From assembly GCF_044324785.1 (NCBI RefSeq), contig NZ_CP172127.1: 64,000 bases of DNA, one strand, 5' to 3'. The position numbers were made by a program. This document shows positions 49,750 to 52,700 of this stretch, in pieces. The stretch's first letter is position 1. The number at the start of each line of letters is the position of its first letter. The DNA is from Escherichia coli. GTDB lineage: Bacteria; Pseudomonadota; Gammaproteobacteria; Enterobacterales; Enterobacteriaceae.

Positions 49750-52700
49750 TAGTGACCTTCGTGGCTGTAGTAAAAGACCGGTAATCCCAGCTTAAGACGT
49801 AGCGCCAGTAAGCGGGCAAAAAAGCCGAATACCAGGGTGGAGATAATCACCACATCATGGTTAGAAACATAGTGTTGCAGCGCGATGTACAGCACGGCGG
49901 AGGCAAATGAGACACCGGCATACAATTCTTTCTGGAATACCAGCGGGATGCGTTTACAGAACATATCGCGCAAAACGCCGCCAAATACGCCGGTCGTCAC
50001 AGCTGCGACAACGGCAATGATCGGGCCGTGTCCCATATCCAGTGCAACCTGTGCGCCAATGATAGAAAAGACTACCAGTCCGAGCGCATCGAGCACCAGA
50101 AACACTTTGCGCAGGTAAGGCATTACAGGAGCAACAATAGTGGTGAGTACTGCGGCGGTAGCGACGATAATCACATATTCCGGGTGTTTGACCCAGCCGA
50201 GCGGATAGTGGCCCAGCAGAATATCGCGCACTGACCCTCCGCCAATTGCCGTGGCGGTCGCAATAATAATTACGCCAAATGTATCCATGCGCCGTCGTCC
50301 GGCCGCCAGCGCCCCCGTCATGGCTTCGGCAGTAATGCCAACCAAATACAAAATGTGTAACAGCATGGTTCTCTCCCTAAAAATCTGTCTGGCAGGGTAG
50401 CGATTTGTGCGCATTGTCACGATTGAGATTTTTTAAGGTGAGAGGAAATTGATAATTTTTAGTTATGTGAAATCGTTGTTTTCTGTAGCGTAGATGCATT
50501 CTTCTGACTTCTTGTCTGAGAAAATGCATAAGAAAAAGTAGGTTAAAACTGAGGGGTGGAAAAGAAAGGTGCAATGTTAGCCATTGTGTTCACTGCACCT
50601 GGACCTTGGCTTACGCATCGGGTGTCTCAATCATCAAAAAGAGTTTTTAGTTTCTGCTATTTCTTCTCTGTAATTTTTACACTGTTTTCCAACTGCTTGA
50701 TGCTGACCTGCGGGGTCGGCAACTTAATACAACCATTTTGGTGGTTTCAACGAAATGGTCAGATGCAGCTTGATTGCTGGCTTCGCACGCTTGAGTCGCG
50801 CGGGCCAGTACCTTTTGAAAATTGCGCCAGTCCCGATAATCCAGTAACGGTGCCAATTCTCTCGCTGACCAAAATTCTTGCCCTTCAGTGCCATAATGCC
50901 GTATTTCTTCAAAAGGTTGATGATGTTCGTTCATTGCCCACTCCATGTGATATCGATTGCAAGGAAAGTAAGTCTACAACTGTGTTTATATACAGTTGTG
51001 AGTATCTCACGTTCTCACTGCGCTGGGCAAAAAAACATCGCAAAATCTGGAGCAGGCACGCAAAACAGAATTGAATGTTGCGGGGAGGAAAAATGCCGCT
51101 CTGTTTGAGTGGACGGCATTTGTGAAGGCTGAAAAGGAAGAATTGGCGTTACGAGTTATTCGATGTTGGATCTGTTTGTAGAGTATTGGCTTCAATGCCG
51201 CATTGTAGCTGGTTTCTTCCTAATGCGATTTTTGATTATGTACACCCTTATGTACACGGTTTTTTCGGGTGCTTTGGTCAGAAGCCATTGCCTACATCCC
51301 TCACGATCGAGGTGTGTAACCATGTTCAGGCTTGTTGTCCTGCGCGCGCGTATTGCTCGTGAAATTGCTGTACCCAATAGTGATGTCCGAAAAAACCTCC
51401 GTTCTCACATGAAACAGCCATATGCAACTGGTAACTGAACAGACTGGTAGACCGTTCGTTCAGTAAATACCTGATATTTTCGCCAACGAGAAATTGCGTT
51501 GGCTGGCAGGGTGCAAATTTGCACGATGGACTAACCCATTGATTCTTTCGAAAACCCCCATTGGGGGAAAAGCCTAACCCATTGGTTTTCCCACAATCCT
51601 CAATTTGAGGAATGTACCTAAAACCATTTTTATAGCTCCGATCCCTTCAAAGTGAGGGGTAATTTGCCAAAACAGAGAGAGCATTACTGTCTCTGGCAAT
51701 CTTTATCGCGATAACGCCTGAAGTACCCTCTCGCTTCCTCATCCATACCAAGAGCCGAATGAGTCCGCTTAACTGCCTGTCTTAAATCTCCGAATCTGTC
51801 TGTAGTTGCTGGTGGGCGTGCCGCCTTACGGATACATTCAGAGCGTCTGTTTGCTGCATGTTCACGTTCTTTATCGCCATCTGCCAGCATCATGACTTCT
51901 GCCCATCGTGCGGCAGCTCTCCGGTATAGCCCTTTTGACTCCAGCTCTTCAGCTTTCCTGTCCCTTATCATTTCTGCCTCTCAGATTATATAGATAAGCA
52001 AAAAGGTGTTGGTTCAGTTGGTTCAGTTGGTTCAATTTGTAAAGATCGTTGTTTTTATTGTGTTTTTTCTGAAATGTTGAACCAACATCAACTCATTTTG
52101 AACCAACACAGTCCAGCTCTGAACCAACAACACAGCGATAGCTTTGTGATTGGTCCGTTATTTTCTGGTTGATATTTGAGCGTATAACAGTGTTATACAG
52201 TGGTATACTGTATGGATATTACTCACTGATATGGTCTTTGCAATGAGCAAATCTAATCTGGTCGCGTTCCGCATCCCATCTGAATTGCAGGATGAGTTTA
52301 ATCGGTCTGTTCTCGCTTCTGGAGGGGATAAAACCTCCTGGCTTGTTGATGCGATTCGCATGAAGCTGGGACAGCCGGAAAAGTCTATTGATTCACGAAT
52401 GCTTGGGCTGGTGGAGCGCATGGAAAAAGCCGCTGCGTCGCTTATTGCCGGAAAGCCGAACATCCCACCAAAGCTATATAACGAAACGGCAGTTATAAAG
52501 ATCATTGCCGATACCATCCGACAGGGATTTGATAATGGGCGTGTGATAGCGGAACGGCTCAATGAAGCAGGCTATCAAACAAAAGCTGGTAAAGCATGGG
52601 ATAAAGACATTTACAGCGCGTGGAAGCGTCAGGGAAGCAATGCTGAAAAGTTATCAGTGGCTCTAAGAATGTAGCCCTATATTTTGATTTTTAGACGTGC

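Follow-up and report, generated by a model that had tools for sequence, protein, structure and literature searches.

A dinD pseudogene very probably made by one internal 547-bp deletion, with its SOS box kept, beside a separately inserted island in Escherichia coli

In the 64,000-nucleotide stretch of the E. coli chromosome analysed here (the window), a short minus-strand reading frame stands at the place of dinD, next to the border of an integrative element. The locus therefore raises the question of whether dinD was cut short by the arrival of the element or by an event of its own. The first-pass annotation of this DNA implied the former, describing a truncated dinD-like gene with an intact LexA box at the chromosome-side junction of the element on its right. 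Our comparison with intact, shortened and island-bearing alleles makes us highly confident that dinD is a pseudogene here, that it results from one 547-bp internal deletion which left the SOS box in place, and that the island insertion is separate.

The shortened frame and its operator

The features of the locus on the chromosomal side are the following (coordinates, strand, description):

48064-49752, plus strand: ligB, from the gene order of the window
49749..50366, minus strand: intact yicG, whose annotated ATG at 50366 gives 205 aa; downstream neighbour of dinD
50367..50656, minus strand: dinD-yicG spacer, 290 nt, fully kept; colinear with intact and deleted alleles
50657..50724, minus strand: dinD 3' remnant, the last 68 nt, now out of frame; aligns with MS14385 (locus L001) 4291-4358
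50677..50934, minus strand: deletion-derived reading frame, 85 codons plus TAA (70 native and 15 frameshifted), from translation
50724..50725, no strand: deletion junction, blunt; 547 bp of intact alleles absent (L001 4359-4905)
50725..50934, minus strand: dinD 5' remnant, codons 1-70, first two thirds of Bro-N; Pfam and NCBIfam DinD matches
50935..51155, no strand: dinD-yicC spacer with the dinD promoter region, chromosomal; colinear with island-free PCN033
50978..50997, minus strand: dinD SOS (LexA) box, 20-mer, AACTGTATATAAACACAGTT on the gene strand; core CTGT-N8-ACAG at 50980-50995

Counted from the most upstream ATG, the ORF at 50677..50946 encodes 89 residues and begins with MEWAMNEHHQPFEEI. 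The dinD start used by RefSeq is the second methionine, with its ATG at 50934, which gives a product of 85 residues. The earlier description of about 89 residues that run into unrelated sequence proved accurate: residues 1-70 of the 85-aa product match an intact DinD of the same allele class without a mismatch, and the final 15 (SCRPRRSASSSWKTV) are read out of frame up to a TAA stop at 50677-50679. The native TAG stop of dinD is retained at 50657-50659. At the DNA level, the 222 nt of the 5' remnant are the same in five deletion carriers and in the intact allele of MB06233, and intact alleles of this class depart from it at 0-1 positions.

By position (between yicG and yicC) and by DNA identity, which is colinear with intact alleles on either side of the gap, the gene is dinD itself, truncated relative to the 274-codon gene, an assignment firmer than the original 'dinD-like'. 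That wording may stem from a comparison with K-12, since the window carries the other of two N-terminal classes. The alignment with reference dinD-yicG regions that the first-pass annotation had called for showed that the ORF does align to DinD, both to intact alleles and to the family model NF008573. Its remark that too little space was left before yicG for a full gene was also correct, as the start of dinD lies 568 nt from the start of yicG (50366) in the window, compared with an 825-nt gene plus a 290-nt spacer in intact strains. In MS14385, PCN033 and N12 the corresponding position likewise has a yicG whose annotated product is WP_000924289.1.

Between yicG and the ORF at 50677-50946 there is a gap of 310 nt. 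The dinD-yicG spacer contains a terminator-like hairpin at about 50558-50600 (10-bp stem, 14-nt loop, followed by UUUCUUUUCC), with a fold of -17 kcal/mol and z = -0.86, indistinguishable from shuffles. A consensus terminator scan of 50300-51700 gave none on the minus strand, and an Rfam scan of 49700-52300 (E<=1) returned one chance-level miRNA match and no RNA family in this spacer. A plus-strand ORF at 50556-51074 (172 aa), which is antisense to dinD and crosses the deletion junction, was judged spurious.

To belong to the NCBIfam DinD equivalog NF008573, a protein has to reach a whole-protein score of at least 242 bits (the curated cut-off) and match the model end to end. Two intact DinD alleles scored 504 and 488 bits with end-to-end matches, whereas the remnant product scored 107.9 bits over model positions 6-81 of 288, below the cut-off; as judged from these scores, it is a fragment of a DinD and not a DinD. 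The Pfam Bro-N domain (PF02498) was still recognised in the remnant product (29.8 bits, gathering threshold 25.6), with domain positions 1-59 of 96 present only, while in intact DinD the match covers domain positions 1-86 at residues 10-103. The deletion thus severs Bro-N at residue 70, and essentially all of the C-terminal part is gone. With Bro-N cut at two thirds and the whole C-terminal part of the protein absent, the 85-aa product is most likely inactive. A single-sequence AlphaFold model of intact DinD had a pLDDT of 37.7, too low for a structural judgement on the 70-residue fragment, and a search for solved structures related in sequence to DinD found none. The allele carries the marks by which a pseudogene is recognised, namely 547 missing base pairs (not a multiple of 3), an out-of-frame tail and a premature TAA.

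Upstream of the frame, the near-consensus SOS box reported earlier was confirmed as CTGTGTTTATATACAG at 50980-50995, within a 20-mer that ends 44 nt upstream of the dinD ATG. The bare CTGT-N8-ACAG pattern has two matches in the window where 0.74 would be expected, and 19 of 100 shuffles gave at least two, which is not beyond chance. The site was therefore identified by its position and by its match to the K-12 dinD box (AACTGTATATAAATACAGTT), from which it differs at 1 of 20 positions. The K-12 box is a listed one, and dinD was found to be LexA-dependent by RT-qPCR in lexA mutants (PMC3009722). In Enterobacteria, an SOS box is defined as a palindromic CTGT-N8-ACAG with an AT-rich centre in the promoter region of an SOS gene, and each of these properties was found in the sequence; a consensus promoter scan of 50300-51700 gave no sigma-70 site. 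The identical 20-mer is present in 20 of the 23 fetched loci, beside both intact and deleted dinD.

The operator is thus intact in sequence, and as the exact 20-mer also adjoins intact alleles of the same class, LexA should still bind the box of the deletion allele. DNA damage would then still induce a short transcript encoding the 85-aa product. The box would persist as a small mutational target (20 bp) under no counter-selection, and not because it is needed.

The deletion and the distribution of dinD alleles

BLAST comparison of the window with MS14385, which has an intact 825-nt dinD, returned two blocks, 48001-50724 and 50721-51556, and the junction was placed between 50724 and 50725 by base-by-base extension of both flanks against the same genome. 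Codons 71-252 and one further base are deleted, which shifts the frame. The two BLAST blocks overlap by 4 bp (AACT vs AACC), an overlap that fails the base-by-base check and is not microhomology; compared in this way, the deletion end points showed neither microhomology nor repeats. On the yicG side (50367-50724, 358 positions), the window has 2 differences from intact MS14385 and 7-12 from other deletion carriers (L002, L005-L008). This pattern indicates that recombination break points lie close to the deletion junction. Since the flanks are mosaic and the 5' remnant is identical in all carriers, recombination has moved the deletion allele, or its flanks, between backgrounds.

A single origin of the deletion is the economical reading: with a blunt junction that lacks any repeat, recurrence at exactly the same two bases is unlikely. 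Given the mosaic flank on the yicG side, a single origin requires later recombination near the junction. We propose that one illegitimate-recombination event removed the 547 bp inside dinD and spared the promoter with its LexA box, codons 1-70, the 3'-terminal 68 nt and the spacer downstream. The deletion would have arisen once in an E. coli lineage, and inheritance together with homologous recombination would have carried it into several flanking haplotypes, the loss being tolerated if, as argued below, E. coli in nature can do without dinD.

An 80-nt query spanning the junction matched 14 complete RefSeq genomes at 100% in one piece, and MLI114 is a fifteenth complete-genome carrier, so that the allele is present in at least 15 of 5,426 complete genomes. 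In a public collection, the exact 85-aa product was found in at least 1,000 contigs (1,967 index blocks), and the 89-aa form is recorded from E. coli B354. The first-pass annotation had held that reference alleles of the same exact length and sequence would speak against a truncation. Such alleles do exist, in thousands of assemblies, but relative to K-12 and to the family model the gene is truncated all the same. The PCN033 allele (PPECC33_RS19910, PPECC33_RS29690), for instance, has the identical junction and 5' remnant, with the difference that the remnant is followed directly by yicC in PCN033, whereas in the window the island lies in between.

At the deletion site, RefSeq/PGAP annotates two pseudogene fragments, a 'BRO family protein' and a 'DNA replication protein DnaD'. 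The pseudogene is accordingly an ordinary one, already present and annotated in public genomes. The DnaD label, placed on a 69-nt remnant (L002 5975-6043; also in L005-L008), wrongly names what are the last 22 codons of DinD, and this artefact could mislead text searches.

The first-pass annotation had also spoken of core synteny ending at dinD, but the gene is not strictly core. About 685 of the 5,426 complete genomes (~13%) lack it, their match to the window beyond yicG ending after 174 nt, so that dinD is a presence/absence polymorphism (window positions 50541-51155). In the UPEC strain M24, the sole genome of this class that was inspected (L023 6001-6251), yicG is followed by a 251-bp spacer and yicC, with no dinD and no LexA box. 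In O157:H7 TR01, dinD is frameshifted, and truncated DinD products of 98, 129, 168 and 176 aa occur in other assemblies. From its absence in so many genomes and from these other, independent truncations, we conclude that dinD is dispensable in nature.

Among dinD alleles, the N-terminal part (codons ~12-83, Bro-N) exists as two cassettes that are 83/222 nt (37%) apart within near-identical flanks, as determined by comparing window positions 50725-50905 with locus L004 3790-4010. The window-type cassette is found in 2,808 complete genomes (52%) and the K-12 type in 1,899 (35%). The dinD of O157:H7 TR01 looks like a mosaic of both. K-12 dinD (pcsA, b3645) occupies the same yicC-yicG locus, with its box at the same position and 19 of 20 box bases shared, and its first 11 and last 22 codons are the same as in the window. 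The window, by comparison, lacks codons 71-252 and is shifted in frame, and the codons 12-70 that it keeps are of the other N-terminal class, which accounts for the 83 of 222 differing nucleotides. Full proteins of the two classes share 84% identity, and residues 12-83 hold nearly all of the changes.

Two readings would leave the short form some role. In the broader one, which we regard as improbable, dinD, with its two cassettes, its absence from about 13% of genomes and its repeated inactivation, is a domesticated phage-type (Bro-N) gene under changing selection, and the deletion allele with its retained SOS switch is a product of some conflict, such as one with phages that exploit DinD or are blocked by it; the 85-aa fragment could then keep a residual role. 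The narrower one, for which we see still less chance, is that the 85-aa product is a functional SOS-induced mini-protein, a selected Bro-N fragment that modulates, for instance, RecA or a phage repressor. It would fit with a promoter, LexA box, start codon and open frame that are all intact, with the wide occurrence of the allele (the contig count above) on diverged flanks, and with the finding of no second disabling mutation in five aligned carriers. However, Bro-N is cut at position 59 of 96 and continues into a tail of frameshift sequence. The lack of decay says little, because a 210-nt remnant is a small target, and intact alleles vary just as little over these 222 nt. Moreover, variants of the 85-aa product with 2-3 amino-acid changes occur (P0018, P0022), and dinD is wholly lost or truncated elsewhere in many strains. 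That the short form is an assembly or sequencing artefact, or is ancestral with the 274-codon gene made from it by insertion, is extremely unlikely, given a junction shared by 15 or more independently determined complete genomes and by thousands of assemblies, a kept 68-nt 3' end that is the conserved dinD end out of frame, and a family model of 288 positions that intact alleles match end to end. We thus retain the reading of dinD as a pseudogene made by internal deletion.

The neighbouring island

On the yicC side of dinD, the window contains:

51156..51174, minus strand: copy of the attachment core, TTATTCGATGTTGGATCTG; has 19 of the 21 bp at the yicC 3' end (QIQNIE-stop), the other 2 bp being a gap; left island border
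51175..64000, no strand: left 12.8 kb of a prophage-like integrative element that runs off the window; Pfam and PHROGs matches
51235..51258, plus strand: tandem ATTATGTACACCCTTATGTACACG motif, candidate integrase arm-type site
51684-51971, minus strand: PerC regulator, at the dinD end of the island
53072-53560, minus strand: ImmA/IrrE protease, island
~53642-54915: IS3-family insertion, a 301-aa transposase ORF and an overlapping upstream ORF; absent from the N12 copy
56473-61131, minus strand: P22-like ejection module, island (phrog_651, 598, 917, 770)
61894-63924, minus strand: TOPRIM/DUF927 primase, island

The window is colinear with island-free PCN033 up to 51174, which puts the boundary between chromosome and island between 51174 and 51175. 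The first-pass annotation was right that an end of the right-hand element lies close by, and its placement of the junction at ~51,050 was off by about 125 bp, the actual one being further to the right. The DNA it took as foreign from ~51,050 onwards is chromosomal as far as 51174, and 50935-51155 is the normal dinD-yicC spacer. As for the core neighbour it found to be absent, yicC is indeed not adjacent, but it is displaced and not lost; in N12 it lies just beyond the integrase.

Comparison of the empty site (PCN033), the window and both island ends of N12 defined an imperfect 21-bp direct repeat, TTATTCGATGTTCTGGATCTG, which corresponds to the last six codons and stop of yicC. The full N12 element is ~19.3 kb long, and its tyrosine integrase (phrog_1, 1.2e-63) adjoins intact yicC; it further encodes the TOPRIM/DUF927 primase, the P22-like ejection module, the ImmA/IrrE protease and, at the dinD end, PerC. 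It has the organisation of a tyrosine-recombinase element, with the 21-bp yicC 3'-end repeat at both borders and the integrase at one end. In the window only the left repeat (51156-51174) is visible, as the element continues past the window end. The two copies share the attachment core, the PerC-side end and a gene content at ~99% identity; they differ in that the window copy carries the IS3-family insertion and has its integrase end outside the window. Of the 12.8 kb of island in the window, 19 complete genomes cover 85-90% with 99% identity, likewise at this site, and the left junction of the island was found in about 102-204. An earlier report mentions 'Partial sequences of phage inserted between yicC and dinD' (PMC10050402). 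In our reconstruction, a ~19-kb tyrosine-integrase element would have inserted into the 21 bp at the 3' end of yicC, which lie 221 bp upstream of the dinD ATG. This would have happened in the ancestor of the window and in many other strains, as an event separate from the deletion.

Several further observations concern the island. In N12 as in the window, but not in MS14385, the dinD-side attachment core is without 2 bp (CT) that the yicC 3' end has; this gap may impair excision. The tandem motif ATGTACAC (ATTATGTACACCyyTATGTACACG) lies just inside both island ends, the recurrence at the integrase end of the N12 element being 92% identical (L003 18136-18159 and 37326-37349), and further GTACA repeats occur at the integrase end. 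These tandem motifs are likely to be arm-type sites of an integrase or excisionase. A second SOS-like box, AACTGTATAAAACAACAGTT, is present inside the island at 61323-61342, 13 nt upstream of a 53-aa ORF (61148-61309, minus strand) at the head of the P22-like ejection module; the same 20-mer occurs in the N12 copy, which suggests LexA control of part of the island. Two loci (L018 and L019, positions 1-2740 of each) have elements of different gene content at the same yicC 3'-end site beside a deleted dinD, and this site is hence used by more than one island type.

The proximity of the two lesions, with only 228 bp between the truncated dinD and the island border, is what gave weight to the idea that the insertion truncated dinD and that the short gene is a scar of the element's chromosomal junction. 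We consider this next to impossible. The missing DNA is inside dinD and away from the island, the deletion junction lying beyond the promoter at a distance of 450 bp from that of the island, so that promoter, LexA box and the full dinD-yicC spacer lie in between. The identical deletion is also found in island-free genomes, and the same island end stands beside intact dinD in others. All four combinations occur, and the deletion was therefore not caused by the insertion. Those with the deletion and no island are PCN033, VCSW5, ST70, M114, MEW and GCA_053151395.1, together with loci L010-L016, L020 and L021; the island with intact dinD is present in MS14385 and N12; the deletion with an element at the same site occurs in loci L017-L019; and intact dinD without an island is found in K-12 and MB06233. 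GCA_053151395.1 is 99.86% identical to the window over 47677-51174. No complete RefSeq genome matched the window across both the deletion and the island border, the best matches being at 98.1% identity and having intact dinD.

The truncation is accordingly not part of the island junction, as had been supposed, but an internal 547-bp deletion that island-free genomes share and that genomes with the island can lack. Deletion and island, as their sequence distribution reads, are side by side by coincidence, and the dinD deletion is an unrelated, older and widely shared lesion.

Natural loss of dinD

A part in the removal of RecA filaments is ascribed to DinD in PMC4849656, with reference to Uranga et al. 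2011 J Biol Chem 286:29480. As the product of the deletion allele is truncated and probably inactive, its carriers would probably be natural dinD nulls. A sizeable part of E. coli lacks the gene or has it in broken form, which makes it unfit as a core marker for island borders at this locus. The variability of dinD at the population level is a thread of only mild interest; natural dinD nulls that keep the LexA operator could serve as controls in studies of the SOS response.
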